Positions 800-13,852 of a stretch of 64,000 nt of DNA are shown here, piece after piece (within the stretch, counting starts at the first letter, position 1; each line of letters opens with the position of its first letter). Under the pieces are notes generated by a model that was not told the origin of the DNA, made no database searches, and was given only the letters and a program-made list of their open reading frames with translations. A program made the position numbers and the translations under genes. Source of the stretch: Justusliebigvirus VEcB; the sequence record OZ035773.1; one strand, given 5' to 3'.

Positions 800-821
800 G
801 GCGGTGGAATAGCCCACCGCC
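800..821 (+). promoter_or_regulatory. 5' stem-loop variant ggcggtggaatagcccaccgcc
   Basis: hairpin upstream of RBS and ATG at 845. Confidence 0.5.
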
Positions 822-844
822 TAACAAAGAGAAGAGGAAACATC

Positions 845-1015
845 ATGATCACTTTCGCTACCCGTGAAGCCGCTCGCAACGTTGCACGTAAAGTTAACGC
901 CGCCAACCTGGGCGCTACGCTTAAAGCCCCGGTGAAAGATGAATCAGGAAAATGGATCTTTCCTGGTCTGCGTCACGCTGATAAGCTGGGAACATTAACG
1001 TTAAAAAATAAATAA
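845..1015 (+). CDS. small hypothetical protein (56 aa), GC-rich codon usage
   Basis: ATG with GAGGAA RBS; absent from track (<60 aa); codons CTG/CGT/GCC atypical for this genome. Confidence 0.4.
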   Translation: MITFATREAARNVARKVNAANLGATLKAPVKDESGKWIFPGLRHADKLGTLTLKNK

Positions 1016-1060
1016 TATTCGCTTGACAGTAGCATCATTTATAAGTAAAGTAACAACAAC

Positions 1061-1081
1061 GGCGGGAAATGGTTTCCCGCC
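1061..1081 (+). promoter_or_regulatory. conserved 5' stem-loop ggcgggaaatggtttcccgcc
   Basis: identical to 181-201; TTGACA at 1023-1028 upstream. Confidence 0.6.
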
Positions 1082-1101
1082 ATCAATAAAGAGATAAGAT
1101 T

Positions 1102-1461
1102 ATGAAATCAGTAAAAGCAATTAAAACTTACATTGTGTCGGCTATTTCTTTTGATGGTACTACAACCGAAAAAGAAAAAATCACCGAACTGATGCGCCGT
1201 TTTAACTCTGAATACTGGTATCAATCTAATCGTGATCGTTATAATAACAATATGGTACAAGCTGTTAAAAGCTGGTTACAAGGTTTACCGTCAGACATCA
1301 ATATCGCTTTTAATTATAACGAGATCGATCAATTATTAATTGAATGGAAGTACATAAAAGAAACAAGCAAAGAAACAACCGTTACCCGTGAGCGGGAAAA
1401 TTATTGGTTATATATTGCAAGCATGATCGTAACTTTGGCAAAATATCATAACGTAGCGTAA
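1102..1461 (+). CDS. hypothetical protein (119 aa)
   Basis: six-frame ORF after promoter and stem-loop. Confidence 0.5.
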   Translation: MKSVKAIKTYIVSAISFDGTTTEKEKITELMRRFNSEYWYQSNRDRYNNNMVQAVKSWLQGLPSDINIAFNYNEIDQLLIEWKYIKETSKETTVTRERENYWLYIASMIVTLAKYHNVA

Positions 1462-1475
1462 TCGAGAGGAAAAAC

Positions 1476-1613
1476 ATGAACGCATCACAGCAGATCGAAA
1501 AATTCAACCGCAACAAAGCGCGTAAAGATTGGAACGAAGAGATCACCAAAAAAGGCGACAAGCGGAACAAAACAAAAAGAGATCGCAGCACAAAAAGATA
1601 CTGGAACGAATAA
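1476..1613 (+). CDS. small basic hypothetical protein (45 aa)
   Basis: ATG with GAGAGGA RBS; followed by terminator hairpin. Confidence 0.35.
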   Translation: MNASQQIEKFNRNKARKDWNEEITKKGDKRNKTKRDRSTKRYWNE

Positions 1614-1614
1614 C

Positions 1615-1642
1615 AAAAAAGGGCGCAATAAGCGCCCTTTTA
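1615..1642 (+). terminator. rho-independent terminator
   Basis: gggcgc-aataa-gcgccc hairpin followed by T run. Confidence 0.55.
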
Positions 1643-1731
1643 GCTTATATAGAGGCTTGTTACCCATAGGCAATGGTAACGCCAGGATAAGCCTATAAAC
1701 CACGTTAGACAGCTTTACAGGAGCTTTAAAA

Positions 1732-1914
1732 ATGAAATTAGAAGAAATAAGCAAGGCACTAGCCCAGGGGCAAAGGTTAAACGCCCGTTATCGTGATCAA
1801 TATGGCTTCATAACCAGCGGCGTGATCCTGGGGATTGAAGGCAATAAGATTTTTATTGACACGTTGAAAAACGTTGTATATAGTGACAATATAATCTCAA
1901 TAAAACATATATGA
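1732..1914 (+). CDS. hypothetical protein (60 aa)
   Basis: six-frame ORF, AGGAG upstream. Confidence 0.45.
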   Translation: MKLEEISKALAQGQRLNARYRDQYGFITSGVILGIEGNKIFIDTLKNVVYSDNIISIKHI

Positions 1915-2324
1915 GGCAAGAAATGAAAAAATTATTGATCGCTGGTTTAATCTCTTTTGGCATGGTTGGAACATCTAGCGCGGCGATATCCTCCACAGTA
2001 GCAGAATTAAGCGCCGTTGATGCAATGGAAAACGTCATGATCATTAATAATGCGATCCCCGATGAAATCATGGAGGATTCACACATGATCGCTTATGGTG
2101 CTGTTACACAACTAACGGCAAAAATAGATAAATCTATTGTTAATGGCTTAAATGAAGATGTACCATGTGAAATTATTACCAGTGTGCTGACTACTCAAAA
2201 TTTTACGCCGTGGCTAAAAAGTATTCAAAAGGTGCATAGTGCAGCCGCAGATCGTAGCAATGAAAAACTAGTGTCAGCACTTGCAACGTATACCCTGGCA
2301 AAATGCACTGAAATAAAAGATTGA
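1911..2324 (+). CDS. hypothetical secreted protein (signal-peptide-like N-terminus; alternative start 1923)
   Basis: KKLLIAGLISFGMVGTSSAA hydrophobic leader. Confidence 0.5.
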   Translation: MRQEMKKLLIAGLISFGMVGTSSAAISSTVAELSAVDAMENVMIINNAIPDEIMEDSHMIAYGAVTQLTAKIDKSIVNGLNEDVPCEIITSVLTTQNFTPWLKSIQKVHSAAADRSNEKLVSALATYTLAKCTEIKD

Positions 2325-2371
2325 CAACATAGAAAGCACGTTATAAGATACACACAACAAAGGAGAACTAC

Positions 2372-2674
2372 ATGAACGGCATAGCTAAAACGTTTTTTCT
2401 TTTTTCTGGTGTAAATGATCCATCAATAAAAGTCGATAGTGTAAAAGAAAACAATACTATCACCGCTAAATTGTTTCAAGATGAAACAAATAACGTGCTA
2501 ATCATTAATCTTAAAGAAATAACTAAAGGTTATTATACTATTGCTTACCATGCGATCTATCATGCTGGTACTAGCGAGGAAGTGCAAACAAGCAACAACG
2601 AAAGCGCGGCGCTACCTGGTGATCTGGTGCTGGGCGTTATCAGTTTAATTGTCAATGATTTTTTTAAGGAGTAA
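2372..2674 (+). CDS. hypothetical protein (100 aa)
   Basis: six-frame ORF with AAGGAG upstream; TTGACA at 2326. Confidence 0.5.
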   Translation: MNGIAKTFFLFSGVNDPSIKVDSVKENNTITAKLFQDETNNVLIINLKEITKGYYTIAYHAIYHAGTSEEVQTSNNESAALPGDLVLGVISLIVNDFFKE

Positions 2675-2678
2675 AACC

Positions 2679-2774
2679 ATGCCCTATTTACATTTATTTT
2701 TCGGGATCTTATTGTCAGGATCTTTTTTCTTCTGTATACTTGTTTCTATTGTAAACCACGTTTTAAGACATTAA
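2679..2774 (+). CDS. small hydrophobic peptide (31 aa)
   Basis: AAGGAG 7 nt upstream of ATG; single predicted TM helix; not in track. Confidence 0.3.
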   Translation: MPYLHLFFGILLSGSFFFCILVSIVNHVLRH

Positions 2775-2783
2775 GGAAACAGC

Positions 2784-2903
2784 ATGAAAATTATTCCCGT
2801 ACAATATAGCGTAATAAATCCAGCATACGAGGAAGGAAGGAAAACAAGCATGGCTTTATGTTATATTGCTACTATAGCCATGTTGTTATATATTGTGTTT
2901 TAA
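2784..2903 (+). CDS. small hydrophobic peptide (39 aa)
   Basis: AAGGAAAC RBS; hydrophobic C-terminus; not in track. Confidence 0.3.
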   Translation: MKIIPVQYSVINPAYEEGRKTSMALCYIATIAMLLYIVF

Positions 2904-3003
2904 TAGGTTTTATAGTTGTACGCTTTAAAGGCTTGACAATTTTTTGTTATGCTTTAAACTATATCTTGAAAACGGCAAAGGCCGCAAACAAAAGGGTAAA
3001 ATT

Positions 3004-3327
3004 ATGAAATCTGTGATCGGTGTTTATTTGGATAACTCTGATTTTTTCTATCATCGCGCTCGTTTCCTTGATGCGATTGAAATGATAGAATCAGGCTTTA
3101 AAGAGTATCGCCTTGCACATGATGACCTAGAAGCATTACAGGGCAATAGTGTTTTTACATTGCAAGCGAAAGCACTATGCAAAAGCCGGATCGACATTGC
3201 GAGCAAAAAGATAGAACGCGGCATGTCCTGGTTACGCACCGCAGAAATCAACATGGGGCAATGGTACGGCGAAAACTTAGAAAATAAACTCACTTTTGTA
3301 AATGTAGAAAATATTAAAGATTATTGA
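3004..3327 (+). CDS. hypothetical protein (107 aa)
   Basis: track ORF 2944..3327 trimmed to internal ATG because TTGACA 2933-2938 lies inside the longer ORF. Confidence 0.45.
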   Translation: MKSVIGVYLDNSDFFYHRARFLDAIEMIESGFKEYRLAHDDLEALQGNSVFTLQAKALCKSRIDIASKKIERGMSWLRTAEINMGQWYGENLENKLTFVNVENIKDY

Positions 3328-3356
3328 TTGACAGCACACCTGATAAGGAGTATATT
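3328..3356 (+). promoter_or_regulatory. sigma70-like promoter (TTGACA 3328-3333, TATATT 3351-3356)
   Basis: 17 nt spacer. Confidence 0.5.
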
Positions 3357-3368
3357 GTATCTCATAGA

Positions 3369-3389
3369 GCGGGGAAATGGTTTCCCCGC
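3369..3389 (+). promoter_or_regulatory. conserved 5' stem-loop gcggggaaatggtttccccgc
   Basis: one-base variant of the 181 element. Confidence 0.6.
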
Positions 3390-3409
3390 CTTAACAGAAG
3401 AGATAAGAT

Positions 3410-3694
3410 ATGAAGATCACAAAAGCACTTTCCAACTATGCAGCACGTCGCGGATTATGCTTATCCGTTGAAAACTTAGGGAAAGAAGATTTTTTGTGCT
3501 TTTGGGAGCTTGAGAATGATAATGAGTGGATCTTCTCTTATTCTATCTGCGAAGATCAAAACGGTTGTTTATTAACCTGGCGCGGTAATATCTATCTACC
3601 GGAAGAAATCAAAGAAGAATTGCCAGGCACGATCATGACTGAGAAACAGCTTAAGGAAGTGATTAATTTTGTAGGGCAAAACATTAAAAAATAA
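3410..3694 (+). CDS. hypothetical protein (94 aa)
   Basis: six-frame ORF after promoter and stem-loop. Confidence 0.5.
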   Translation: MKITKALSNYAARRGLCLSVENLGKEDFLCFWELENDNEWIFSYSICEDQNGCLLTWRGNIYLPEEIKEELPGTIMTEKQLKEVINFVGQNIKK

Positions 3695-3734
3695 TTTGAC
3701 ACTAGGCAAACAACGTAGTAAAGTTTATCACATA

Positions 3735-3753
3735 GGGCGGCAATAGTGCCGCT
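3735..3753 (+). promoter_or_regulatory. 5' stem-loop variant gggcggcaatagtgccgc
   Basis: same loop as 498 element; TTGACA at 3698. Confidence 0.5.
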
Positions 3754-3775
3754 CATAACAGAAGAGAAACAAATC

Positions 3776-3946
3776 ATGATCCCAACTATGTTTTATGTAT
3801 CGCGCAAAGGTCACAATATTTTTTGGTCTGAAGATTTAAATGAAGCCATGACGTTTGCCCGTGATCGTGTTGCTATTGGTGGCGTTAATATCACCGTAAC
3901 CGATGAAAACGGCATTGAATACTATAACGGCGACGATGAAGAGTAA
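3776..3946 (+). CDS. hypothetical protein (56 aa)
   Basis: track ORF 3746..3946 trimmed to ATG downstream of hairpin. Confidence 0.4.
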   Translation: MIPTMFYVSRKGHNIFWSEDLNEAMTFARDRVAIGGVNITVTDENGIEYYNGDDEE

Positions 3947-3953
3947 TTAATGA

Positions 3954-3974
3954 GGCGGGGGAGTATTCCCCGCC
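3954..3974 (+). promoter_or_regulatory. 5' stem-loop variant ggcggggg-agtatt-ccccgcc
   Basis: GC hairpin immediately upstream of next gene. Confidence 0.45.
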
Positions 3975-3993
3975 GTCAATAAAGAGGTAAATC

Positions 3994-4263
3994 ATGAAAA
4001 TATCTTTGGACGTTGCAATCAAGGCCATCGAATCCGGTTACACCCTGGTAAAAGATGATAAGGCTAAAATAGTGCATCATGTTAACAAGGAAACAGGCGA
4101 AAGCATGATCACATATAAAGCCGCCTACTTTCTCCAATCAGTAGCAGATCCGCGCGTACAGCGCCAGGTCACGGCGGCTATTGCTAAAAAATTATGTGCT
4201 TTACAGGGCACAAGTTTTAACGAGATCGCCCCGTGTTTTGACTGGTCGAGCTTGAAAAAATAG
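3994..4263 (+). CDS. hypothetical protein (89 aa)
   Basis: six-frame ORF. Confidence 0.5.
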   Translation: MKISLDVAIKAIESGYTLVKDDKAKIVHHVNKETGESMITYKAAYFLQSVADPRVQRQVTAAIAKKLCALQGTSFNEIAPCFDWSSLKK

Positions 4264-4302
4264 TTTGATAATACGCGGTTATCTGGTAAAGTGTACGACA
4301 TA

Positions 4303-4326
4303 GGGCGGGGCAATAAGGCAACGCCC
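4303..4326 (+). promoter_or_regulatory. 5' stem-loop variant
   Basis: gggcg...cgccc hairpin upstream of ATG 4346. Confidence 0.4.
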
Positions 4327-4345
4327 ATTAATGAGGGGTAGAATC

Positions 4346-4450
4346 ATGTTAGAGAAAATTTTCACGGTTGTAATAGTGGGCCTGGCGTTATCGGTTGGAT
4401 TGGTTGCAACTATGGCTAACATGATCCTATCTTCCCACGGTATCGGCTAA
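4346..4450 (+). CDS. small hydrophobic peptide (34 aa)
   Basis: ATG after hairpin; TM-like VVIVGLALSVGLVA; not in track. Confidence 0.3.
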   Translation: MLEKIFTVVIVGLALSVGLVATMANMILSSHGIG

Positions 4451-4464
4451 AAGAGAAACACAAC

Positions 4465-4851
4465 ATGAAAACAGAAATCATTATTGAAATCATCAACGGT
4501 TATAAAGAAGCCTTTATTTTTGCCGAACCAGCGACGGATCACAATGGGGAATATATTGAGAATCTAGACGATTATGATTTTTCTCCTAGCGCCCTGAAAC
4601 GTATTACCAGCGATGTGACCGCCTTTTGTGATGCCAATGATGCCGCTATCTCTGAGGCAATGAGCGACGGCGCTACAGCAAACCAGATCGGGAATGATTT
4701 ACATTTTACCAGTAACGGTCACGGCGTAGGTTTTTGGGATCGCCCTGAAATATACACTACTAACACCGCCAACCGTTTAACTGATGCAGCTAAATTAATG
4801 CCATTGGTGCATGCTTACATTGGTGAAGATAATTTGATTTATATTGACTAA
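4465..4851 (+). CDS. hypothetical protein (128 aa)
   Basis: six-frame ORF. Confidence 0.5.
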   Translation: MKTEIIIEIINGYKEAFIFAEPATDHNGEYIENLDDYDFSPSALKRITSDVTAFCDANDAAISEAMSDGATANQIGNDLHFTSNGHGVGFWDRPEIYTTNTANRLTDAAKLMPLVHAYIGEDNLIYID

Positions 4852-4856
4852 AAGTG

Positions 4857-4884
4857 TTGACACCGATCCCCAATATGTTATTAT
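4857..4884 (+). promoter_or_regulatory. sigma70-like promoter (TTGACA 4857-4862, TATTAT 4879-4884)
   Basis: 16 nt spacer. Confidence 0.5.
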
Positions 4885-4894
4885 TTACCACGTA

Positions 4895-4915
4895 GGCGGG
4901 AAATGGTTTCCCGCC
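4895..4915 (+). promoter_or_regulatory. conserved 5' stem-loop ggcgggaaatggtttcccgcc
   Basis: identical to 181 and 1061 copies. Confidence 0.6.
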
Positions 4916-4938
4916 AGGTAATCAAAAAGGTAAATACT

Positions 4939-5328
4939 ATGCGCAACCTGGTTTCTGTTTCTAACGTTGAAAAATTTCAATCCTTACAGGGTATCGTTAA
5001 CAACGTAGCGCCTTTTTTAGTAAACGGCTTGATCGCAAAGATGAAAAATAAACATCATGCGGCATGGTCTGCTTACTGCTTTGATAATGATGAAAAAGCG
5101 GCTGAAATGATGTTAGATATGCTGTTAGATAGTGTAGAAACATCTTTACCGGAAAACATCGCAGAAGAGATCACCTATCGTTATAATATGGCGATCACTT
5201 ACCAGGAGGTTGCGCAATTCAACATGATGGATGATGACGAACAACAGGATCAGGAAATGTTCTGGGAGTATGCGGATCGTCAATCAGCTTTTGATGAAAA
5301 ATTAGCGATGTATTATAACGAATATTAA
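4939..5328 (+). CDS. hypothetical protein (129 aa)
   Basis: track ORF 4903..5328 trimmed to ATG after hairpin. Confidence 0.5.
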   Translation: MRNLVSVSNVEKFQSLQGIVNNVAPFLVNGLIAKMKNKHHAAWSAYCFDNDEKAAEMMLDMLLDSVETSLPENIAEEITYRYNMAITYQEVAQFNMMDDDEQQDQEMFWEYADRQSAFDEKLAMYYNEY

Positions 5329-5345
5329 TACACGGTAAAAGAAAG

Positions 5346-5368
5346 GGGCGCACTAAGCGCCCTTTTTT
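5346..5368 (+). terminator. rho-independent terminator
   Basis: gggcgc-actaa-gcgccc followed by TTTTTT. Confidence 0.6.
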
Positions 5369-5515
5369 GTATTCTTTTTCACAATGGAAGCGACACGTAA
5401 AGAATAGGCGTAAAGGTGGCGTAAAACCATCTAAAACCGACTGTAACCGCTTAAACAAGGTAGGAATGATTAATCACCTTACCAGGATGAAAAAGCTGTT
5501 ATAAAGCTATCTAGG

Positions 5516-5812
5516 GTGTTTAAAGGTGACTTGGTTGAAGTTAGAACAACCGAAGGTTATAGCGACGATTATAAATGCGAGATTCATTTACACAACTGGT
5601 ACACGGGTAAAACTTATGCGCTGAATCATGCGTTTATCGGCAAGGTTGAATATAGAGAAATGATCGACGAAGAAACCGGGCAAGATTTTAGCGATCATGT
5701 TTATATTCGTTCAGAAACATTAGCCGAACGTTTGATCGAGAAAATGAAAGCAAAAAATAAAATTAATTTAGCTCATTGGATTGATATAACAAACGATCCA
5801 GCTTATAAGTAA
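5516..5812 (+). CDS. hypothetical protein (98 aa, GTG start per track)
   Basis: six-frame ORF; weak RBS. Confidence 0.4.
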   Translation: MFKGDLVEVRTTEGYSDDYKCEIHLHNWYTGKTYALNHAFIGKVEYREMIDEETGQDFSDHVYIRSETLAERLIEKMKAKNKINLAHWIDITNDPAYK

Positions 5813-5827
5813 ATAACATTTCATACC

Positions 5828-5852
5828 AGGGCGCTTATTGCGCCCTTTCTTT
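5828..5852 (+). terminator. rho-independent terminator
   Basis: agggcgc-ttattg-gcgccct followed by T-rich run. Confidence 0.55.
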
Positions 5853-6059
5853 TTACCTAAATAAAGATGATAGCTTTTACCTATCAAAAACGTTCACCGA
5901 AAAAAGTGAATAGATCGCGGTATCGAGCTAATCAAGGAGCAGATGAACAACCATACCATGAAGATCATAAGGCGTTTACAGCGTGTTTTAGACCGTTTAT
6001 TTTTAATTTCTTCATGCAACTATAGGACAAAAACAGTCTTTTTCTTGTCTTTCCTCTTA

Positions 6060-6076
6060 AATGATAATCATTCTTA
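6060..6076. repeat. palindromic repeat aatgataatcattctta (Fur-box-like)
   Basis: exact second copy at 6118-6134; related copies at 7042 and 7224. Confidence 0.6.
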
Positions 6077-6117
6077 TTTATAGCTGATTATTTATGCAAT
6101 AAACTGCATAATGCAAT

Positions 6118-6134
6118 AATGATAATCATTCTTA
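6118..6134. repeat. palindromic repeat aatgataatcattctta (Fur-box-like)
   Basis: exact copy of 6060-6076. Confidence 0.6.
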
Positions 6135-6524
6135 ACTTAAGACCATCTAACTTATAAAATAATAAGTTATCTAACTAAATTAAAGCTAATTATCTTACTT
6201 TTATTTATAACATACTGTTACTATCTTATTGATAACCTTATATTAAACAACAATAATCAATGTAAATCATTACTAAGCTAACTATAATCTATCTAACCAT
6301 TAAAACTATAACTATAATCTATCGAATTGTTGCACAAAGTAACTATTAAATTGTTAGTAACATTACTAAATAATTCACATCTTATCTATTTATGATCTAA
6401 TCTTTACCTCCCTATTTATTACCTAAATAACCATTTCATGTAGTAATCATTTCATACAATAACTATAACAAGAAATATAATTCGCAAGCGTATCATTAGC
6501 AGCCTATGCCGGACACATAGGCGG

Positions 6525-6670
6525 CTAATAATAACGCAACTACACCCCCCCACATAATAACTATCGCCGATAGTTATTATTTGTGTTTATGTAGCTTGCA
6601 ACAATTGCAAGCGCAACAATATACATGGTATATTGTATTCCCTTACATTGTTGCGGTGCGTTATTATTAG
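6525..6670. repeat. inverted-repeat-bounded palindrome cluster
   Basis: ctaataataacgcaac (6525-6540) matches reverse complement within gttgcggtgcgttattattag (6650-6670); internal palindromes at 6551-6581, 6596-6610, 6617-6635. Confidence 0.5.
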
Positions 6671-6733
6671 CTAATGTTTAGAACATTGGCTATAATATAA
6701 GCTGCATATAATAAGCTATACAATAATAAACAT

Positions 6734-6769
6734 AATGAATAATGACACTGAAATGAATAATGACACTGA
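6734..6769. repeat. perfect 18 bp tandem duplication aatgaataatgacactga x2
   Basis: read directly from sequence. Confidence 0.8.
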
Positions 6770-6909
6770 TGATCATAATGCGCCACCCTCCAGGGGCGCT
6801 ATGTGAACACAAAGAAATCTTTCTTGTCAAGAAAAATATCATCATTATTGCGCAAAATTATTTACATCTGAATAGATGATTTTTCATACTATTGCCCCCA
6901 TATAACTTA

Positions 6910-6968
6910 CTATTTGTTGCAATGTATTCCCCTATTTGTTGAGCATAGTTATAGCCTATTTGTTGAGC
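6910..6968. repeat. three direct copies of ctatttgttg(agc)
   Basis: copies at 6910, 6932, 6956. Confidence 0.65.
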
Positions 6969-7041
6969 CTACTTTCTTAAAAGCGCAATAAATCAGAATT
7001 ATCTTGATTTTTAGGTAGTTTTATAGTATAGAAAATATGCA

Positions 7042-7057
7042 AATGATAATCATTATC
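7042..7057. repeat. palindrome aatgataatcattatc (17/19 match to Fur-box consensus)
   Basis: compared by eye with GATAATGATAATCATTATC. Confidence 0.5.
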
Positions 7058-7261
7058 AGCTATCTTCCACGGGTGGCACTATTTCACACCAGATCATTTC
7101 ATTTGGCAAGGTGTAGATAGATGTTTAGACTTGCCAAGTTATTGATTTACTTAGAATTTATCTGTTTTGTTGTAAGTAGAGCCTTTTTTGCTCAGAAAAT
7201 AATCAAAAGTCTTATAAGTCATTGAATGATAATGCAAATGATAATTATTCTCATTGATATT

Positions 7262-7486
7262 TGAGGGGGACGGTCGGGAAAAATCGGGGGGCGCTGAAAA
7301 TCGCGTTAAGCACCTCTCGCAAGCGAGCAGTATTTTGCGGCAAGTTATTGATATTATTGACTTTACGCTTATGAAAAGGGGGTGTGTCGAAATAAATCGG
7401 GTATACCGGAAAATTTTTGTGGCATAGATATTTATTTGTCTATATTATGTACAAAGGGGTGTGTTAAAAATATTAGGTATATATAG
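7262..7486. repeat. three imperfect ~30 bp iteron-like direct repeats
   Basis: gggg-tgtgtcg-aaataaatcgggtata-like units at 7262-7296, 7375-7405, 7454-7484. Confidence 0.5.
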
Positions 7487-7627
7487 AATAATTGATAGGG
7501 AAATCCTATACTAATTCCTCCATTAATGATGTTTCTATGTTGCTGTTCTTGTAATAGATGAAAAGACGCTGTATGATGTGTGGCATGAAACGTAATCCTA
7601 CAACGTAATCTTATAAAGGAGTCTGAT

Positions 7628-7993
7628 ATGTGTGTTCCTCTTAGCAGTCCACTGCTGTTAGAATTTTACAAAGCATGGATGGAAGATCATTCCTCAATGC
7701 ATCGTGAGAATGTTGGTTTGTGTAATTGCCTTATGGATTACCTGGCAACCACTATGTCAAAGAAAAAACCTACGGAAGAAGATATAGAACATTTCAAGAT
7801 GGTTCGTAGCAAAACGCTGGAAGAGATGAAACTGCAATTCACGTGTGCTGGGCTATCCTCCTTCCTACCCTTTAATTATGATCTTCTGTGTTATGAAGAT
7901 GAAGGTAAGACACATTCTTGCCATACCAACCCAAAGAGATTGCAGTGGGTGAAAGACAGAATCGAAGATGCAAATAATGCTTGCATTGAATAA
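7628..7993 (+). CDS. hypothetical protein, paralog family A (copy 1)
   Basis: shares L-FY-W...GLC-CL-D-L...PFN...QWV-DRI motif with 9690 and 10968 ORFs. Confidence 0.55.
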   Translation: MCVPLSSPLLLEFYKAWMEDHSSMHRENVGLCNCLMDYLATTMSKKKPTEEDIEHFKMVRSKTLEEMKLQFTCAGLSSFLPFNYDLLCYEDEGKTHSCHTNPKRLQWVKDRIEDANNACIE

Positions 7994-8075
7994 AAATGTC
8001 TGTATAGTGGTTTGCATACCGCGCACGACGCGTTTCCATTTTCAATAAAATGTTAGCATTATGGGGAGGTAGAAA

Positions 8076-8537
8076 ATGAGACAACTATCTATACTGGAAG
8101 CACATGTGCAATGTGTTGCAGATTATGTCAAAGAACACTCAAGTTTGTTGGATGTAACCTGTGCAGTGCAAAATGATGTAGGTATTGTCTGTGTGCGACA
8201 TATCTTATCTGAAACTCGTTATGAAGTATTTCGTGCCAAGTTGTTTGGATGTGATCAAGTGCATGTAAACTTCTTGGATTCCAATTTTCGTTATGCTTTA
8301 AAAAATATTGAGGATTATCTTCCTTGCTCTCCGACCGGATATGTGATGATGGCAGCAAATGAAGTAACACCAAACAATAGTGAGCGGGAAACTTTGTTAC
8401 GGAAGAAAATACGCCAACTGCAAGTGTTGAATGAACTGAAAGAAGAGATTGAAAAAGAACTGAAAGAAGATTTTGGTATGCTTCCAAAAGACGCTTTGAA
8501 ATGGTTTGATGAACTAGGAGAGGAAAGTTATGAATAA
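8076..8537 (+). CDS. hypothetical protein, paralog family B (copy 1)
   Basis: H-SLL-V...V-H-LS-T-Y-VF motif shared with 14573 ORF. Confidence 0.55.
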   Translation: MRQLSILEAHVQCVADYVKEHSSLLDVTCAVQNDVGIVCVRHILSETRYEVFRAKLFGCDQVHVNFLDSNFRYALKNIEDYLPCSPTGYVMMAANEVTPNNSERETLLRKKIRQLQVLNELKEEIEKELKEDFGMLPKDALKWFDELGEESYE

Positions 8538-8706
8538 AGAAACTACTGTGTACTTAGTAACAAAGAATACCCCAGGCTGGAGCCAATGCAGCACTATACC
8601 TTACAAGATCTGTGCAACATTAGAACTAGCACAACGTGCAGAAGCAGAAGTGGATGCCATGCAATACAGCTATGGTGAAATCATTCCTTTTACTCTTGAA
8701 CAATAA
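8530..8706 (+). CDS. small hypothetical protein (58 aa)
   Basis: ATG overlapping upstream stop; not in track. Confidence 0.35.
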   Translation: MNKETTVYLVTKNTPGWSQCSTIPYKICATLELAQRAEAEVDAMQYSYGEIIPFTLEQ

Positions 8707-8717
8707 GGAGTTGTGTA

Positions 8718-9170
8718 ATGTTTGAAATTGGTAAAGTGTATCGTTTTAAGAACGAATCTTATATCCGTAAGTTTGCTAATGTGTCTGAGTTCAATAACAG
8801 GATTGCTTCTTTCTTAGGTGATTCCTATTTTCGTGTATTAGATATTGATGACTGGTATGGTGTCACTTCTTTGCAATCCTTAGCAGGAGAGCAAGAAATT
8901 ATCACTCAAAATGAAGGAGATTTTCTTCAGTGTTACACATTGCTTGTAGAGAGTGAGTTTGAATACTTTGTAGAAGTAGTAGAGGAAGCACCAAAAAGTA
9001 AGCATGAAGAGAAATACCTGCTTGTAGTGGATGGAGTTCCAATCGTGGAAACCATCTCCCGTGAGGAAGTTGAAAAAGAGGCAAAACGTTACAAGCTGGA
9101 TCGTACACAGAGTGTAGTTGAAGTCTATTCTCTTATTGGTGTTGCAGATGTTCATGTGAACATTGTATAA
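8718..9170 (+). CDS. hypothetical protein (150 aa)
   Basis: six-frame ORF with AAGGAG upstream. Confidence 0.5.
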   Translation: MFEIGKVYRFKNESYIRKFANVSEFNNRIASFLGDSYFRVLDIDDWYGVTSLQSLAGEQEIITQNEGDFLQCYTLLVESEFEYFVEVVEEAPKSKHEEKYLLVVDGVPIVETISREEVEKEAKRYKLDRTQSVVEVYSLIGVADVHVNIV

Positions 9171-9384
9171 TATGTGTAATGATAGATACATTCTTCGTGT
9201 ATCTGATAAGTCTCCTATGTTTGACTGGCGGGGCTGGTGGCTACTAGCTCCGATGCTAGGTCTGACTGACGTGGAAAAGGAGGCTTATGTGTATACAAAA
9301 GAAGAGATAGAAGATAGCCTTTATTTGACAGATAACATTAAGAATGGTATCTTTGAGTGTAAATTGAAAGGAGAGGAAGAATGA
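9163..9384 (+). CDS. hypothetical protein (73 aa)
   Basis: six-frame ORF; overlaps neighbours by a few nt. Confidence 0.45.
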   Translation: MYNMCNDRYILRVSDKSPMFDWRGWWLLAPMLGLTDVEKEAYVYTKEEIEDSLYLTDNIKNGIFECKLKGEEE

Positions 9385-9680
9385 CTGTTACAGAAAAACT
9401 GCGTTGTATTGCAAAGCAAAGCGGAGAAGGCTTATGGTTTCCTATTGATGAAGTTATTCAGGACTGTTATGATCAGGCTAAGACTGGCAAATACTCCAAA
9501 GCATTTAAACCATCTGTTTTCGGTTTGGATGATTATCCGACGAATGAACAAGCAAGGAAACGCCAAGTTGATTTGATTGATCTTGCTATGGAAGCACTAC
9601 GAGAGCGTGGACTTAGTAAGGTGTATGCTTTAAACACCAAAGAGGGTTTTGTAGATTCAGTGATCGTAGACTGGCATTAA
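9381..9680 (+). CDS. hypothetical protein (99 aa)
   Basis: six-frame ORF; start overlaps upstream stop. Confidence 0.5.
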   Translation: MTVTEKLRCIAKQSGEGLWFPIDEVIQDCYDQAKTGKYSKAFKPSVFGLDDYPTNEQARKRQVDLIDLAMEALRERGLSKVYALNTKEGFVDSVIVDWH

Positions 9681-9689
9681 GGAGCAGCC

Positions 9690-10058
9690 ATGCAAGAGAA
9701 TAATAAAGTGTGTAACATGAAAAGCAGCCCCTATTTGCTACAATTTTATGAGTGGTGGTTGGAACAAGAAGATACAAACTTTAGCAAAAAGCATTATGGT
9801 CTTTGCACGTGTCTTGTAGACTTCTTATACAACATTGCTTGGATAAAAGATGTTGAAAATGTATCAAAACTCCAATCCTCTGTACGAGAGGAAATGAAGG
9901 AACAATTTAAGAAAGCGGGTTTGAACCATTTACACCCATTTAATACAGATTTCTCACATTACTTTACGGAAACAGAGCTAGGCACTGCACACCTTAACAA
10001 AGAACGTGTACAATGGGTGATTGATCGTATTCGTGATATGGAGGAATATAATGGTTAA
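9690..10058 (+). CDS. hypothetical protein, paralog family A (copy 2)
   Basis: family A motif. Confidence 0.55.
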   Translation: MQENNKVCNMKSSPYLLQFYEWWLEQEDTNFSKKHYGLCTCLVDFLYNIAWIKDVENVSKLQSSVREEMKEQFKKAGLNHLHPFNTDFSHYFTETELGTAHLNKERVQWVIDRIRDMEEYNG

Positions 10059-10260
10059 GTTTAAAACCTTCTGTGCAATCACTGTTTGTCTTATTCTTGC
10101 ATACGTGTTATTCTCTGGTATCATTCGTTTAGGTGAGTATATGGCAAGAGAAGCTCGTGAAAGTGAAGCTAAAAAAGAACAGTGCATCGTGTTAAAGCAC
10201 CAAAGGGATGCTGAAAAATTTCTTGAACAGGATTGTGGGCGCTATGTGAATTATAATTAG
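10051..10260 (+). CDS. small membrane protein, paralog family C (copy 1)
   Basis: track ORF 10021..10260 trimmed to ATG after GGAGGA; TM helix plus KE-C-IVLKH motif shared with 15048 ORF. Confidence 0.5.
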   Translation: MVKFKTFCAITVCLILAYVLFSGIIRLGEYMAREARESEAKKEQCIVLKHQRDAEKFLEQDCGRYVNYN

Positions 10261-10269
10261 GAGGGAAGT

Positions 10270-10518
10270 ATGTTAGATATTTTTACCTTTGATCGTGTTG
10301 GTACACCGATTACCGAAGAAGAACGTACCAAAATTGAACAAGAATTGGATGCTTTACGTGCGTCTCTTACAGACACAGCCTCACTACAACGTGAAGCTGC
10401 ACATCTCACAGAGATCACTGGTATTCAGTGGAACACGGAGTGGGTTGTAATTACAATTGAAGCGGATATTTGGGGACATGAAGAGACGCTACGTACCGGA
10501 GTAGTAACGGTTTGGTGA
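10270..10518 (+). CDS. hypothetical protein (82 aa)
   Basis: six-frame ORF, GGAGGGA upstream. Confidence 0.5.
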   Translation: MLDIFTFDRVGTPITEEERTKIEQELDALRASLTDTASLQREAAHLTEITGIQWNTEWVVITIEADIWGHEETLRTGVVTVW

Positions 10519-10564
10519 TAGATGTTATTCTTTTGTGTTTCTTGATATATAAATAGGAGGGTTT

Positions 10565-10789
10565 ATGGTAAAACGTCTGGAATGGGATGCGTGTACTGCT
10601 CACGCTTGTCACTGTGATATTGTTGAAGATCCTAATGGAGAGATGGTGTATTATGAGGATTACGAAGCATTGCACAATGCTGTGATTGCTTTACTGGATG
10701 ATATTAGCTCACGCTATCCAGGACAACAATTCACGTGTCCACATATCCAACTATTAGCCGAACTTACGGAGTATCCAAGTGTTCCATAA
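10565..10789 (+). CDS. hypothetical protein, paralog family D (copy 1)
   Basis: CDIV-DP-G...DY motif shared with 15924 ORF. Confidence 0.5.
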   Translation: MVKRLEWDACTAHACHCDIVEDPNGEMVYYEDYEALHNAVIALLDDISSRYPGQQFTCPHIQLLAELTEYPSVP

Positions 10790-10967
10790 TATGGGTGTCC
10801 CTGAACAACTGCTCTTTATTGTAGGATTAGTAGGCTTATTGGCGGCTGGCGCTAAAGCCGCTTCTCACACGCATCACATAATGTTAAGATTTCTGTTCCT
10901 ACTCCCTTCTATCCTTGTATTATTAGTCATATTGATTGATAACATTTTTCACAATTAAGGAGAGGTT

Positions 10968-11552
10968 ATGAGTAAAATTATACCAAGCAGTTATGAATTA
11001 TTGCAGTTTTATGTATATTACTTAGACTGGGTTAATAGATCGAATGTTAAAGACAATGCGATGTTTAGTAAAAACATCTGTTTAACAGAAAGTATCTTCC
11101 GTTATTGGCACACAGGCAGAAAGTGTACACACAGTGAAGCTATGCGCATTGTAGGTGAATACCTGGAGCAATTGCAAAAAGCAGAACTTCCTGTCCTTCA
11201 CCCATTCAACGAATCTAAAGAAGAATTAGAACAAGAGTGTAGAGAAGGTAAGTGCCATTTAAATGAAAAACGTATCGAATGGGTGAGGCAACGTTTAGCC
11301 GATGCAGGGAATCCTCCTAGTGACTCTGACTATACGTGGTATGATGTAGAGGGTTTAGTTCAAGGTTTTGAGGCTTGTGCTATAGGTAATACCAACTTTG
11401 CCAAAGTTTTATGCGAGGTTTATGATCTGGCAGATAAAATCCGAAATCACGGATGGAAACAAGAGCATAAAGAATCATATGAACGCCTTGACAAGATTTT
11501 CAAACAGATCTATTCTAACCACAAAGAGATGTTCCAAATGGAGGATGTGTAA
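10968..11552 (+). CDS. hypothetical protein, paralog family A (copy 3, C-terminally extended)
   Basis: family A motif in N-terminal 120 aa. Confidence 0.55.
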   Translation: MSKIIPSSYELLQFYVYYLDWVNRSNVKDNAMFSKNICLTESIFRYWHTGRKCTHSEAMRIVGEYLEQLQKAELPVLHPFNESKEELEQECREGKCHLNEKRIEWVRQRLADAGNPPSDSDYTWYDVEGLVQGFEACAIGNTNFAKVLCEVYDLADKIRNHGWKQEHKESYERLDKIFKQIYSNHKEMFQMEDV

Positions 11553-12238
11553 TGAAAGAGATTATGTTTGAAGGGCATCGTTACGAAGTTCCAGACAATG
11601 CAAATTTCATGGCTCGTGATATCACTGGAGATGTGTTCTGGTTTGAAGATGAACCTGTGTTTTCTTCGAACAAACACTGGTTTTCACAACAATCTTCTTC
11701 GGAAAATATGACTTTTGGCTACGTAGAGCCTAAAGTGCGCTGCAAAGCAGCTTCTTCTTTGGTAGAAATTTCCCAAGATGATCAAGAAAATACTCCAGAT
11801 GTTGTTAGTGCACTACTGAAGTACATTGCAGAACTTGAGAAGAAAATTAAAGAAGCAGAAACTAAGGTGAAAGCACGATCAGCCATCATTGAAGCTATGT
11901 CTGAACGTATCTTAGAGCTAGAAGATTTGTGTGGAGAGGCTTATCAAGTGGTTGGTGCGCTGGCTTGTGAAGCACAAATGTTTGAAACTTCAGAACAAGT
12001 TTCACATATGTTAGATAATTTGAGTGAATGTAAAATGATTCATGATGATGTATTGCCATTTTGTTGCAATGTTAACAAAACAGAGCAAACACAAGATTCA
12101 GAAACAGTTTATGTTCCGCTAATGTGTGTTCCAGATCATCTAAAAGGTGTATTCTCTTGTAAATGGTCGCTGTTGAGCGTTACTAATTGTGGTGAAAACT
12201 ATTCTGCCAACATTGAATTGCTAAAACACGTTAAATAA
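11552..12238 (+). CDS. hypothetical protein (228 aa)
   Basis: six-frame ORF; start overlaps upstream stop. Confidence 0.5.
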   Translation: MKEIMFEGHRYEVPDNANFMARDITGDVFWFEDEPVFSSNKHWFSQQSSSENMTFGYVEPKVRCKAASSLVEISQDDQENTPDVVSALLKYIAELEKKIKEAETKVKARSAIIEAMSERILELEDLCGEAYQVVGALACEAQMFETSEQVSHMLDNLSECKMIHDDVLPFCCNVNKTEQTQDSETVYVPLMCVPDHLKGVFSCKWSLLSVTNCGENYSANIELLKHVK

Positions 12239-12248
12239 GGAGAGTAAT

Positions 12249-12653
12249 ATGTGGTCTGTTAAAATCAAATATAATGCGCAGTATTATGGTGGAAAGCCTT
12301 ACGAAGTTGTTATTTGTGACTGTATCTCTAAAGAAGTTGCACAGCTTTGTGGCGCTGGTGTTAGTGAAGCTATGAACAAAATGCATAACTCGACTGTGCG
12401 TTACCTGGATCAAGATATTCCAGAAGATGTAAATGACTATGCTTACGAAGTTATTTACAGTGAAGGTAAGAAGCTCTCTATTGAAGATGCACTTAAAGCA
12501 CTACCTGCTATGTGCAGCCCAACGCCAGAAGCAGTTAAAGAGGTTTTACCAGAATCCAACCCCGATGAATATGCTTCTATGGTTGCTTCAGATATGTGGA
12601 ATCTCTGTCGAGAAACTATGATTAAAAATCTTGTGGAAATGGCGCATGAGTAA
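12249..12653 (+). CDS. hypothetical protein (134 aa)
   Basis: six-frame ORF with AAGGAG upstream. Confidence 0.5.
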   Translation: MWSVKIKYNAQYYGGKPYEVVICDCISKEVAQLCGAGVSEAMNKMHNSTVRYLDQDIPEDVNDYAYEVIYSEGKKLSIEDALKALPAMCSPTPEAVKEVLPESNPDEYASMVASDMWNLCRETMIKNLVEMAHE

Positions 12654-12864
12654 AACACACTTTATACATCCGTTTGATCCAAAGAACAAGGCGGTTATAC
12701 ACCGCCGTTGGACTGAAACGCGCATTACAAAATGTCCTGTGCCAGCAGCACAGGAATATAACAAAACATATAAAGCAGAATTTGTGGAGTACACCTTTGT
12801 AAATAACAAAGGGAAGGAGGTTTATGTTCCAGAATACTGCCTTTGGATAAAATGGGAGGAATAA
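12646..12864 (+). CDS. hypothetical protein (72 aa)
   Basis: track ORF 12631..12864 trimmed to ATG overlapping upstream stop. Confidence 0.4.
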   Translation: MSKTHFIHPFDPKNKAVIHRRWTETRITKCPVPAAQEYNKTYKAEFVEYTFVNNKGKEVYVPEYCLWIKWEE

Positions 12865-13031
12865 TGCAAACATTTTTTATCGACAAGTTCAATAAAAGTA
12901 TGAACACGTGGATGGCAACATTCACTATGCAATTTGCGTCATTTAAAGAAGCTCAAGAATGGTGCGATCAACACAAGGATTTTGATTTTTACTATCAAGT
13001 TAATGCAAACCTTTCTCCAGAGGAGAAATAA
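12864..13031 (+). CDS. hypothetical protein (55 aa)
   Basis: track ORF 12843..13031 trimmed to ATG after GGGAGG. Confidence 0.4.
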   Translation: MQTFFIDKFNKSMNTWMATFTMQFASFKEAQEWCDQHKDFDFYYQVNANLSPEEK

Positions 13032-13032
13032 T

Positions 13033-13377
13033 ATGTTGGCTGATATTGAAATCCTTATGTACCGACAAGGTATGATCAAAATGTGGTTAGATTCTTTTAG
13101 CAACATATACTGCACAGTACGATCAGCAGACGAGCGTAAAACGCTTATTTTATCTGCTATTGTTGATAAACAACGTTTCTTCAAAGAAATTTTGCAAACA
13201 GGCTTCTCCGATGCAGGAGTAGAAATTGCAACTCTTAGTTTTGGGGTGCTGTCTTACTTGGAATCTGTTGTTTTATATGTCTTCTCTTTAGAGGAAGACT
13301 TGCAATTCGAAGCATTAAAACTTATCTTAGATGCTGCAATTGACATAGAACAAAATCGAATTGATTCTTTTGAATAA
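13033..13377 (+). CDS. hypothetical protein (114 aa)
   Basis: track ORF 12934..13377 trimmed to ATG after AGAGGAG. Confidence 0.45.
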   Translation: MLADIEILMYRQGMIKMWLDSFSNIYCTVRSADERKTLILSAIVDKQRFFKEILQTGFSDAGVEIATLSFGVLSYLESVVLYVFSLEEDLQFEALKLILDAAIDIEQNRIDSFE

Positions 13378-13392
13378 AATAAGGAGAAAACT

Positions 13393-13851: not shown

Positions 13852-13852
13852 T

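Follow-up and report, generated by a model that had tools for sequence, protein, structure and literature searches.

The gene-free region of a phi92-like Justusliebigvirus genome probably represents the joined ends of its linear chromosome

The DNA analyzed in this study (64,000 nt of Justusliebigvirus VEcB, hereafter the window) contains a repeat-dense region without a credible gene (5847-7627). We consider it very likely that this is the end region of the linear chromosome, and that the two ends appear joined because their terminal repeats were merged into a single copy during assembly. The sequence places the phage among the phi92-like Justusliebigviruses; identity over the region is 90-95% with 49 phi92-like records and 95-99% with five further ones, and at least 80% of it is covered in 43 records. 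The absence of genes described in the initial annotation is real: no open reading frame (ORF) of 60 aa or more is found on either strand between 5812, where the upstream Gp30.8-like gene (PF06019) ends, and 7628. The longest stop-free stretch measures 97 aa (the median in the other 1815-nt tiles of the window is 234 aa), lacks a usable start and crosses the terminal-repeat boundary, and the curated records of relatives carry no annotated genes in the region. Its predicted parts are non-coding DNA inside the right end (5847-6965), a 343-bp direct terminal repeat (DTR) with which the virion DNA physically ends (6966-7308), and a leader ahead of the first left-end gene (7309-7627) (Table 1). Among the four explanations originally offered (replication origin, regulatory hub, ncRNA locus, degraded mobile element), the hub is plausible and the mobile element had to be abandoned; the identity as a terminus and packaging region had been missed.

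Table 1. Features of the gene-free region and its borders (positions in the window).
Feature	Position	Strand	Description
Intrinsic terminator	5828-5846	+	Stem-loop and T-run; predicted to close the upstream right-end early operon
Conserved island 1	5868-6010		Perfect palindrome TGATAG-N7-CTATCA (5868-5886) and AAATCGCGGTA (5912-5922)
Fur-like module A/B	6057-6134		Box A (7-1-7 at 6062-6076), palindrome TTATGCA..TGCATAA (6092-6111), box B (19-mer at 6115-6133, 16/19)
AT-rich tract	6135-6490		GC ~22-28%; G-poor and C-rich on the + strand
Conserved multi-hairpin element	6499-6671		173 nt; covariation; hairpin 6502-6508/6516-6522, 15-bp closing stem 6524-6538/6657-6671
18-bp perfect tandem	6734-6769		Lineage-specific; single copy in phi92
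Three CTATTTGTTG copies	6910-6968	+	Copies at 6910, 6932 and 6956
DTR, single collapsed copy	6966-7308		343 bp; homology to the phi92 DTR
Fur-like box C	7039-7057		17/19; perfect 7-1-7 TGATAATcATTATCA at 7044-7058
Segment S1	7100-7149		Inverted repeat TTGGCAAG (7103-7110) / CTTGCCAA (7130-7137)
Fur-like array D	7222-7255		Overlapping hexamer repeats; 7-1-7 at 7239-7253 (1 mismatch), 19-mer at 7234-7252 (15/19)
Segment S2	7253-7325	+	TGATATTTGAGG, G-rich unit U1 (7255-7300), right cut site GAAAATCGCGTTA^AGCACCTCTCGCAA
Left-end leader elements	7341-7511		IHF-core match (7341-7353), G-rich U2 (7376-7421) and U3 (7453-7498), palindrome TGATAG-N7-CTATAC (7493-7511)
First gene after left end	7628-7993	+	121 aa, no Pfam family

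The assignment of the terminal repeat is based on four related phages. In phi92 (FR775895.2) the left repeat (1-343) is identical to the right one and aligns exactly to 6966-7308 with 96.8% identity, the phi92 end positions being those of the GenBank annotation (PHI92_DTR-L/-R). The ends of the BME3 record map to positions 7307 and 6966, and the BME3 paper gives a DTR of 342 bp determined by PhageTerm. The record of Schickermooser, which belongs to another genus, starts with AGCAAG.., ends with ..TCGCGTTA and has a terminal redundancy of 329 bp (328 bp according to PMC6563267), and the UAB_1 record annotates the same terminal repeat. All four have a homologous repeat with the same two boundary motifs and a length in the class of 328-343 bp. 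Phi92-type genomes also share the flanking genes, with the Gp30.8-like gp248 upstream and gp001-type genes downstream; the gene at 7628-7993 is syntenic with the first annotated genes of these records. Our phage differs from phi92 in that its repeat appears as a collapsed, internal copy, the only one in the window. It also has a duplication (24 nt) of the left cut motif and the 18-bp tandem, neither of which is found in phi92. We infer the ends of our phage by homology to relatives with determined ends. The accounts of Stephanstirmvirinae ends that we consulted give the repeat length alone and no description of its internal anatomy.

Both repeat boundaries are marked by a short motif, TGTTG^AGC on the left and CGCGTTA^AGCA on the right, which are present in the window and conserved across all clades compared, with a spacing between left and right cut of 329-412 nt (11 loci from at least six clades). 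During packaging, the terminase would cut the concatemer at these two sites and the DNA between the cuts would be duplicated, so that each virion would carry the repeat at both ends, as in T7-type phages. The three CTATTTGTTG copies noticed initially are the sole copies in 64 kb (0.37 expected). Copies 2 and 3 (6931-6944 and 6955-6968) duplicate the left cut motif, CCTATTTGTTG^AGC, 24 nt apart, and the exact left end is therefore ambiguous here (6942 or 6966). The middle copy is missing in phi92 (24-nt indel), and the left boundary motif has been duplicated independently in several clades. The 18-bp tandem duplication, likewise reported before, is 100% identical and lies in a part (6700-6950) that is not conserved between genera. 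We infer that this tandem and the extra CTATTTGTTG copy are recent slippage duplications without a conserved role.

Two segments of the repeat region stand out as possible terminase targets. S2 is a candidate recognition and cleavage signal; the right cut falls after 7308, within a boundary motif conserved in all clades. S1 and S2 together (7100-7149, 7253-7325) would be the likeliest terminase recognition elements; no other non-coding DNA of the phage is copied in the chromosomal islands, which also carry its tail genes (see below). S1 overlaps a sigma-70-like TTGGCA-17-TAGACT, the phi92 counterpart of which has a perfect TTGACA, as well as an IHF-core match (7135-7147). The latter and a second IHF-core match (7341-7353), out of eight in the window, flank the right cut. 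Promoter assignments are weak, since sigma-70-like matches in the region are not above those in shuffled sequences (19 vs 16.4 +/- 3.8).

This arrangement can be compared with two well-known packaging systems. The T7 concatemer junction consists of a 160-bp terminal repeat flanked by the short-repeat arrays SRL and SRR, with early promoters beside the left end; the repeat is duplicated through a hairpin intermediate that depends on a palindrome. Our phage resembles T7 in its short exact terminal repeat and in the repeated motifs on both repeat flanks. In addition, promoter-like sites follow directly after its left end, and palindromes precede its right end by a few hundred bp. It differs in that there is no sequence similarity, and in being a 147-kb myovirus with promoters of the host RNA polymerase type, Fur-like and IHF-like sites and a far larger non-coding flank (1.1 kb). 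The cos site of phage lambda comprises cosN and cosB with the IHF site I1, and host DNA-binding proteins assist its terminase. Host-factor consensus sites also lie beside the cut here (IHF cores at the right cut, Fur-like boxes beside S1/S2), but lambda has cohesive ends and not terminal repeats, and we know of no role of Fur in packaging.

The organization of the region is conserved. Across 11 loci from at least six clades, the order is terminator, island 1, Fur-like boxes A/B, folded structure and left cut, followed by Fur-like box C, S1, Fur-like array D, right cut and AATTGATAGG. Vequintavirinae also have a gene-free region (1.5-1.9 kb), drawn as an unexplained ‘non-coding’ box in the rV5 genome map (PMC3606486). 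In rV5 this syntenic region follows the same terminator and island 1 and contains a Fur-like A/B module. The Vequintavirinae differ in having the downstream genes on the other strand, and neither the cut motifs nor the P1-type element can be recognised in them (weak covariance-model matches, E ~1e-3). The stem of the terminator is kept in all relatives including Vequintavirinae, with a variable loop, and the terminator is annotated in the PATM and phAPEC8 records. The primary sequence of island 1 is conserved across Stephanstirmvirinae and Vequintavirinae; its AAATCGCGGTA resembles the right cut-site motif and its palindrome recurs in the left-end leader. A Fur-regulated leftward sRNA across island 1 was considered and dropped, as no consensus RNA fold was obtained (-2.85 kcal/mol). 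In the leader, the motifs GGGGTGTCAAAAATA..GGTATATAT..AATTGATAGG are conserved across genera; considered as a possible promoter class, neither GGTATATAT nor GGGGTGT..AAATA is enriched elsewhere in the window.

The same comparison makes it highly improbable that the region is a degraded mobile element or a set of unannotated small protein genes. The region is rich in repeats, and some automatic annotations place 8-11 ‘hypothetical proteins’ in it. However, it is syntenic in every relative, with an architecture conserved over two subfamilies, and contains neither a transposase or integrase remnant nor terminal inverted repeats bounding it, which rules out the mobile element. Small genes are contradicted by reading frames broken by indels between genera (e.g., the 52-aa ORF at 5867-6025) and by curated records without a CDS in the region. 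The comparison with related genomes suggested initially thus found the region kept and free of ordinary genes, but the 18-bp tandem and part of the CTATTTGTTG family proved lineage-specific.

The Fur-like repeats were among the repeat families noted at the outset. aatgataatcattctta indeed occurs twice exactly (6060-6076 and 6118-6134), but the reported match of 17/19 positions to the Fur-box consensus holds at 7039-7057 only. Scored by mismatches to the E. coli consensus, the other sites match at 16/19 (6115-6133), 15/19 (7234-7252) and 14/19 (6057-6075) positions. For the 19-mer GATAATGATAATCATTATC with at most three mismatches, 0.05 chance matches are expected per 64 kb. Four of the five window matches to the 7-1-7 form TGATAATnATTATCA fall in the region, i.e., in 2.8% of the length, with a whole-window expectation of 0.84. 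Fur-like sites keep their positions across genera and two phage subfamilies, in surroundings of which only ~28% can be aligned. The position of module A/B is kept in Phapecoctavirus, Klebsiella phages, metagenomic clades and even Vequintavirinae. Box C follows the invariant ATCTTGATTT (7002-7011) at a distance of ~30 nt and, in most but not all clades, lies ~75-80 nt inside the left end. Array D, the counterpart of which in Wec190 matches at 17/19 positions, precedes the right cut by ~60-70 nt in most clades. In one metagenomic clade (mg24, mg31), C and D match poorly or are missing.

The four Fur-box-like sites would most likely bind host Fur, which is the candidate binder because no Fur-family protein is encoded nearby (none among 10 neighbouring ORFs). 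Multicopy Fur boxes titrate Fur, as exploited in the FURTA assay. The sites would make terminal promoters iron-responsive, or would titrate Fur once the genome is amplified. We see about an even chance that the repeat family AATGATAATCATT serves mainly to bind E. coli Fur-Fe2+, which would make the region a regulatory hub as proposed initially; such a role is compatible with the terminus identity and concerns solely the purpose of the repeats. Like E. coli Fur operators, the sites include a 17/19 match with a perfect 7-1-7 (7039-7058) and a clustered array at D, which is overlapping and phased by 6 nt as is typical of E. coli Fur clusters (PMC2189734). Unlike those operators, they lie in terminal non-coding DNA of virulent phages and not before iron-uptake genes. 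Several observations argue against such a hub: no consistent -35/-10 pair was found over any box in either orientation (promoter scan and manual inspection), the phage consensus half-site ATTCTCA is slightly off ATTATCA, and our literature search found no link of Fur to these phages, and a count of occurrences gave no mention of fur in a Keio screen paper on a V5-like phage. Repressing essential early genes would also seem costly in iron-replete media, where these phages thrive. A fur SNP from a phage-resistance paper concerns a T4-like phage and is irrelevant here. Fur boxes are absent from the non-coding DNA of the chromosomal islands and are therefore not part of the signal shared with them.

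The multi-hairpin element contains the inverted repeat pair described before, which is a perfect 15-nt repeat at slightly different positions (6524-6538/6657-6671) and does enclose palindromes, including GCTTGCAA-N3-TTGCAAGC in the inner hairpins. As a single sequence, the element has a folding z-score of about -7 on both strands. In an alignment of 21 sequences, 98.5% of the cells are paired (91.3% after shuffling), with compensatory double changes in 11 pairs over five helices, a result equaled by one of 500 shuffles (slid controls: 0-3). A covariance model finds a single copy of the element in the window. Next to it, the AT-rich tract reaches a GC content of 0.22 at 6001-6400, with a local skew minimum; the cumulative skew turns at ~7000. 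The G-poor composition is found at the same position in eight of eight relatives (4-12 G vs 14-26 C per 100 nt), but the sequence itself is not conserved. The element would act as a folded single strand, either as a replication or priming signal or as an RNA.

That the element and the strand-skewed tract start replication or priming is a tentative reading. It is favored by the change in sign of the GC skew, by the low GC content with its local skew minimum, by a composition conserved without sequence conservation and by the conserved pairing, which suggests a single-stranded form. The chromosomal islands, moreover, have their own Rep-like gene and iterons and no copy of the element, as would fit a role in replication and not in packaging. 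On the other hand, none of the 34 DnaA-box matches in the window (at most one mismatch) falls in the region, the neighbouring ORFs have no initiator domains, and no similarity to plasmid origins or ssi signals was found. A few hundred bp of skew cannot be the mutational footprint of replication, and the skew changes of rV5 were attributed to transcription direction (PMC3606486). Nor is there a regular iteron array. Of the three iteron-like units described initially, U2 and U3 are related (33/51 identical positions, above all 300 shuffles), whereas U1 shows borderline similarity to U2 and no significant similarity to U3; the ‘iterons’ are two convincing units beside the right cut, and the spacings are 121 and 77 nt. 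The density of GATC is not unusual (5 observed vs 8 expected). The origin option of the initial annotation is thus weak, with the AT-rich stretch in its favor and DnaA boxes, an iteron array and a nearby initiator gene missing.

Transcription of the element as a structured RNA, possibly from the minus strand, is rather unlikely, even though the covariation speaks for this ncRNA option. The consensus fold is more stable on the minus strand (-55.7 vs -44.2 kcal/mol), which is free of broken pairs in a set of 15 sequences, and the negative GC skew over 5800-7000 resembles that of minus-strand genes. By manual count, ~5-7 wobble-creating substitutions favor the minus and two the plus strand, a difference that is not significant. 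The search for known structured RNAs proposed initially yielded no family: an Rfam scan of 5000-8500 on both strands gave chance-level matches only and nothing in 6485-6680 at E up to 5. Further points against an RNA are the equal single-sequence z-scores of both strands and the absence of a conserved promoter or terminator on either strand (scan and manual inspection); in Phapecoctavirus, the sole -10-like hexamer would start transcription within the closing stem.

The right cut site and a nearby palindrome are copied in integrase-bounded islands of ~13.5 kb that occur in 6-8% of complete E. coli genomes. In 413 of 5426 E. coli chromosomes, a 46-nt core of S2 is found with 90-96% identity, ~75 nt being colinear, and the S1 segment is shared as well. 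Besides the integrase, these islands have att repeats located at tRNA genes (in locus L036, direct repeats of 21 nt at 804 and 14291, separated by 13.5 kb) and a Rep-like protein and iterons of their own. They are candidate satellites because they encode homologues of the phage tape-measure and tail-tube-initiator proteins. The former matches Stephanstirmvirinae only among 50,697 phage records, and the latter is 58-61% identical to its Justusliebigvirus counterpart; a distant capsid-like protein is also encoded. We propose that the islands may be satellites of phi92-like phages that hijack the packaging signal, although the copied segments could instead serve as targets of regulation.

Known satellites that copy the packaging site of their helper include P4 (cos) and the cos and pac PICIs, and PLE and PICMI are satellites of virulent phages. 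The islands resemble these in their size of 13.5 kb, integrase, att sites at tRNA genes, own Rep-like gene and iterons and copy of the phage cut-site segment, but differ in their gene set (tape-measure, tail-tube-initiator, distant capsid-like protein), which to our knowledge fits none of these families. It is conceivable, if doubtful, that the region forms a three-way interface in which S1/S2 are the terminase signal, ~13.5-kb satellites copy this signal and the phage recruits Fur at four operators. With similar reserve, the islands would then be a previously undescribed family with shortened tape-measure and tail-tube-initiator genes. If true, the four Fur operators would tie the development of the phage, or iron uptake by its host, to the iron status.

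The terminus identity as such is already known, the 343-bp repeat being annotated in phi92, and the region alone is an ordinary phi92-like genome end; recognising it prevents mis-annotation. Several deposited records list 8-11 ‘hypothetical proteins’ in this region, and at least one has a mis-joined end. The two cut motifs let the ends of ~140 related therapeutic-candidate phages be set from sequence alone. The Fur-box cluster, found over two subfamilies of virulent coliphages, offers a directly testable connection of iron sensing by the host with the biology of lytic phages, and the 173-nt element with its covariation is a candidate for an origin or an RNA in this phage group. Hundreds of E. 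coli chromosomes contain cut-site copies together with tail genes of the helper type, which points to satellites of virulent coliphages. If real, these would influence how well phage therapy based on phi92-like or phAPEC8-like phages works.

The region of about 5830-7627 was described in the initial annotation as gene-free, and this is borne out. We found no ORF of at least 60 aa from the stop codon of the Gp30.8-like gene (5516-5812; PF06019) to the ORF at 7628-7993. The longest stop-free run is 97 aa (minus strand, 7154-7444) and has no usable start codon, against a median of 234 aa for the other 1815-nt tiles of the window. The GC content is lowest (0.22) at 6001-6400, and the GC skew is negative from approximately 5800 to 7000 and then turns positive. 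The upstream Gp30.8-like gene (window 5429-5812) encodes 98 aa from a GTG start at 5516, versus 127 aa in phages phi92, PATM and inny, and has three in-frame stop codons upstream of it in the window. Approximately 350 nt of PATM (comparison locus L001, 2467-2817) have no counterpart in the window.

Megablast revealed 85 phage records matching the region; for 43 of them, the match extends over 80% or more of its length, mostly with 90-95% identity. The latter are all phi92-like Justusliebigvirus phages of the Stephanstirmvirinae, whose genomes have published direct terminal repeats at their ends. In the curated records, the region is flanked by Phi92_gp248 on one side and by the genes that open the phi92 map on the other. 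The phi92 genome (FR775895.2) is annotated with identical left (1-343) and right (148270-148612) terminal repeats, and a junction made from both phi92 ends aligns end-to-end with the window, the repeat corresponding exactly to 6966-7308. The same repeat is annotated in the UAB_1 record. A 342-bp repeat was determined with PhageTerm in the BME3 paper, and the first and last positions of the BME3 record map to 7307 and 6966 of the window, respectively. The record of the Phapecoctavirus Schickermooser starts with AGCAAGTTCTC and ends with AAAATTCGCGTTA, giving a terminal redundancy of 329 bp (328 bp in the corresponding paper; PMC6563267). Homology to phi92, BME3, UAB_1 and Schickermooser identifies the region as the place where the chromosome ends are joined. 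Since the repeat occurs only once in the window while the ends of its relatives map here, the window represents a permuted assembly with both terminal repeats collapsed into one. The earlier reading of the region as a replication origin, regulatory hub, ncRNA locus or degraded mobile element is partly supported but missed this genome terminus.

In its core identity, a genome terminus, the region has a known precedent in phi92. On the rV5 genome map, a box is marked “non-coding” with no explanation (PMC3606486). The literature searched seems to contain no description of the cut-site motifs, of the conserved cluster of Fur boxes, of the covarying element or of the island copies discussed below. 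We should note that the ends of the BME3 record (PP239276.1; comparison loci L003/L004) are seemingly mis-joined, with the window equivalent of 7307-6507 at both ends and an additional 7380-6966 segment appended, and that its annotated ‘DTR-L’ is offset from the phi92 boundaries. In addition, four records labeled ‘Campylobacter phage’ with C. jejuni as host (MG065639, MG065645, MG065656, and MG065689) show 95% identity to the region, which probably reflects a wrong label or a contaminant.

A distant search returned 138 matching records. A gene-free stretch of 1.5-1.7 kb is found at the same place in Phapecoctavirus, Klebsiella phages, a new genus (phiWec190) and five metagenomic clades. As only approximately 28% of the region can be aligned between these clades and the window, the conserved islands stand out, and their order is given in the table. 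In all clades, the left and right cuts lie 329-412 nt apart. Vequintavirinae (TH18, Av-05) have a gene-free region of their own (1.6-1.9 kb), in which the terminator is found again together with island 1 and the A/B module.

Conserved elements of the gene-free region, in order (window coordinates; ^, cut position)
Order	Element	Coordinates	Sequence or remark
1	Terminator	5828-5846	
2	Island 1	5868 to ~6010	Perfect palindrome TGATAG-N7-CTATCA and AAATCGCG(G/T)TA
3	Fur-like box A, palindrome, Fur-like box B	6057-6134 (together)	Palindrome TTATGCA..TGCATAA
4	AT-rich tract		G-poor on + strand; composition kept, sequence not
5	Folded element	6499-6671	
6	Left cut motif		TGTTG^AGC
7	Conserved motif, then Fur-like box C		ATCTTGATTT (motif)
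8	S1	7100-7149	
9	Fur-like array D		
10	S2 with right cut	7253-7325, cut after 7308	CGCGTTA^AGCA
11	Outer right motifs	7453-7511	GGGGTGTCAAAAATA..GGTATATAT..AATTGATAGG

Both outer edges of the region carry the right cut motif AAATCGCG(G/T)TA (5912-5922 versus 7298-7308) and the palindrome TGATAG-N7-CTAT(C/A)(A/C) (5868-5886 versus 7493-7511). The island 1 copy of the motif is exactly TCGCGTTA in several clades.

All five repeat families of the initial annotation are present, while the Fur match scores, the length of the inverted repeat and the third iteron-like unit had to be corrected. The 18-bp tandem is single-copy in phi92 and thus a recent duplication. Of the three CTATTTGTTG copies, the second and third duplicate the left cut motif, and the middle one is missing from phi92. 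The left cut motif has been independently duplicated in other clades; given its duplication in the window, the left end may be either 6942 or 6966. Among the G-rich “iteron-like” units, U1 lies immediately inside the right cut, within S2, with U2 and U3 immediately outside; two of the three are convincingly related, the third is not. The inverted repeat is found at 6524-6538 and 6657-6671 but is 15 nt long instead of 16 bp, and forms the stem that closes the folded element.

On either strand, this element folds far better than shuffled sequences do (z-scores of -7.1 and -7.0). Across 21 distinct sequences from at least six clades, its 45 pairs in five helices are 98.5% paired, versus 91.3% when shuffled. 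Compensatory double changes were found in 11 pairs, a number reached by only one out of 500 shuffles, and in only 0-3 pairs of control structures slid by 1-3 columns. The inner hairpin differs completely in sequence between clades, yet its pairing is always kept. The pairing is clearly under selection; the element may act as RNA or as single-stranded DNA, of either strand. A covariance model detects one copy in the window and only weak matches (E about 1e-3) at the equivalent position in Vequintavirinae, whereas the E. coli islands give no match. The element corresponds to no Rfam family, and neither plasmid similarity nor DnaA boxes were found. In rV5-type phages (Vequintavirinae; loci L019, 3476-3599, and L020, 3501-3644), the position of the element is occupied by another large palindrome, GTTAACAATTTTGCAA..TTGCAAAATTGTTAAC, together with ATTGTGTC motifs in repeated copies.

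The 17/19 match to the Fur consensus claimed for the Fur-like boxes holds at 7039-7057 only, the remaining sites scoring 16/19, 15/19, and 14/19. This 17/19 19-mer is site C, which contains a perfect 7-1-7 motif (TGATAATcATTATCA). Four of the five 7-1-7 matches in the window fall in the region (2.8% of the window), with 0.84 expected for the whole window. The Fur-like sites are conserved in position in most clades, site D of Wec190 matching 17/19. Site D consists of hexamers that overlap one another, an arrangement resembling the clusters of 6-nt-phased Fur sites in E. coli (PMC2189734). No Fur-family protein is encoded nearby, making host Fur the candidate binder. A consistent promoter could not be assigned to any of the boxes. 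A literature search yielded no paper linking Fur with this phage group.

Two mechanisms are possible. The predicted Fur sites may place terminal promoters under iron-responsive control, a promoter-like TTGACA-17-TAGACT being located between sites C and D in phi92, or the amplified genome may titrate Fur via the predicted boxes. Multicopy Fur boxes titrate Fur in the FURTA assay. The prophage gene nohA encodes a protein similar to a terminase small subunit. A site upstream of nohA is among the strongest Fur sites of E. coli K-12 and was confirmed by gel shift (PMC2189734). Given the nature of nohA, this site forms a precedent for Fur sites adjoining phage packaging functions.

Elsewhere in the window, a perfect TTGACA-type promoter precedes nearly every small gene in the block upstream of the region. 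After several of these promoters (142, 460, 1023, 3328, 3696, and 4857, + strand) comes a conserved leader similar to CACGTAGGGCGGGAAATGGTT. Downstream of the region, promoters of this type are few. Sixteen tRNA genes are clustered at 58938-62135 (+ strand), a cluster known from this phage group.

The segment 7283-7328, spanning the right cut, was also found in 413 out of 5426 complete E. coli genomes with 90-96% identity, always in unannotated DNA. The likeness to S2 covers approximately 75 nt, and a second, colinear segment of 50 nt (S1) is located 540-830 nt upstream of the S2 copy. In all three genomes inspected (chromosomal loci L035, 8480-9046; L036, about 804-14311; L037, 1-13264), the segment is part of an island adjoining a tRNA gene, which is thrW in two genomes and leuX in the third, where the island is degraded and lies beside BREX. 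The islands are integrase-bounded and approximately 13.5 kb in size, one having 21-nt direct repeats at its boundaries, 13.5 kb apart. Strains 2014C-3061 and 2013C-4225 are examples in which the island is intact. Besides the integrase, the islands encode a tape-measure homologue (609 aa), a tail-tube-initiator homologue (237 aa), a distant capsid-like protein and a Rep-initiator-like protein, next to which lie about 2 kb of non-coding DNA rich in iterons. Among 50,697 phage records, the tape-measure homologue matches only Stephanstirmvirinae-type phages, and the tube-initiator homologue is most similar to Justusliebigvirus (58-61% identity). This tail-gene pair is present in 313 out of 5426 E. 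coli genomes.

Judged by sequence similarity, the islands are tied to the phage group by three independent links. The simplest reading is that they are candidate satellites copying the packaging signal of their helper; a literature search gave no paper connecting satellites to these phage genera. If the islands are indeed satellites, S1 and S2 would be the recognition elements of the terminase, and the two features that the islands lack, namely the Fur-like boxes and the folded element, would serve phage-specific regulation or replication.
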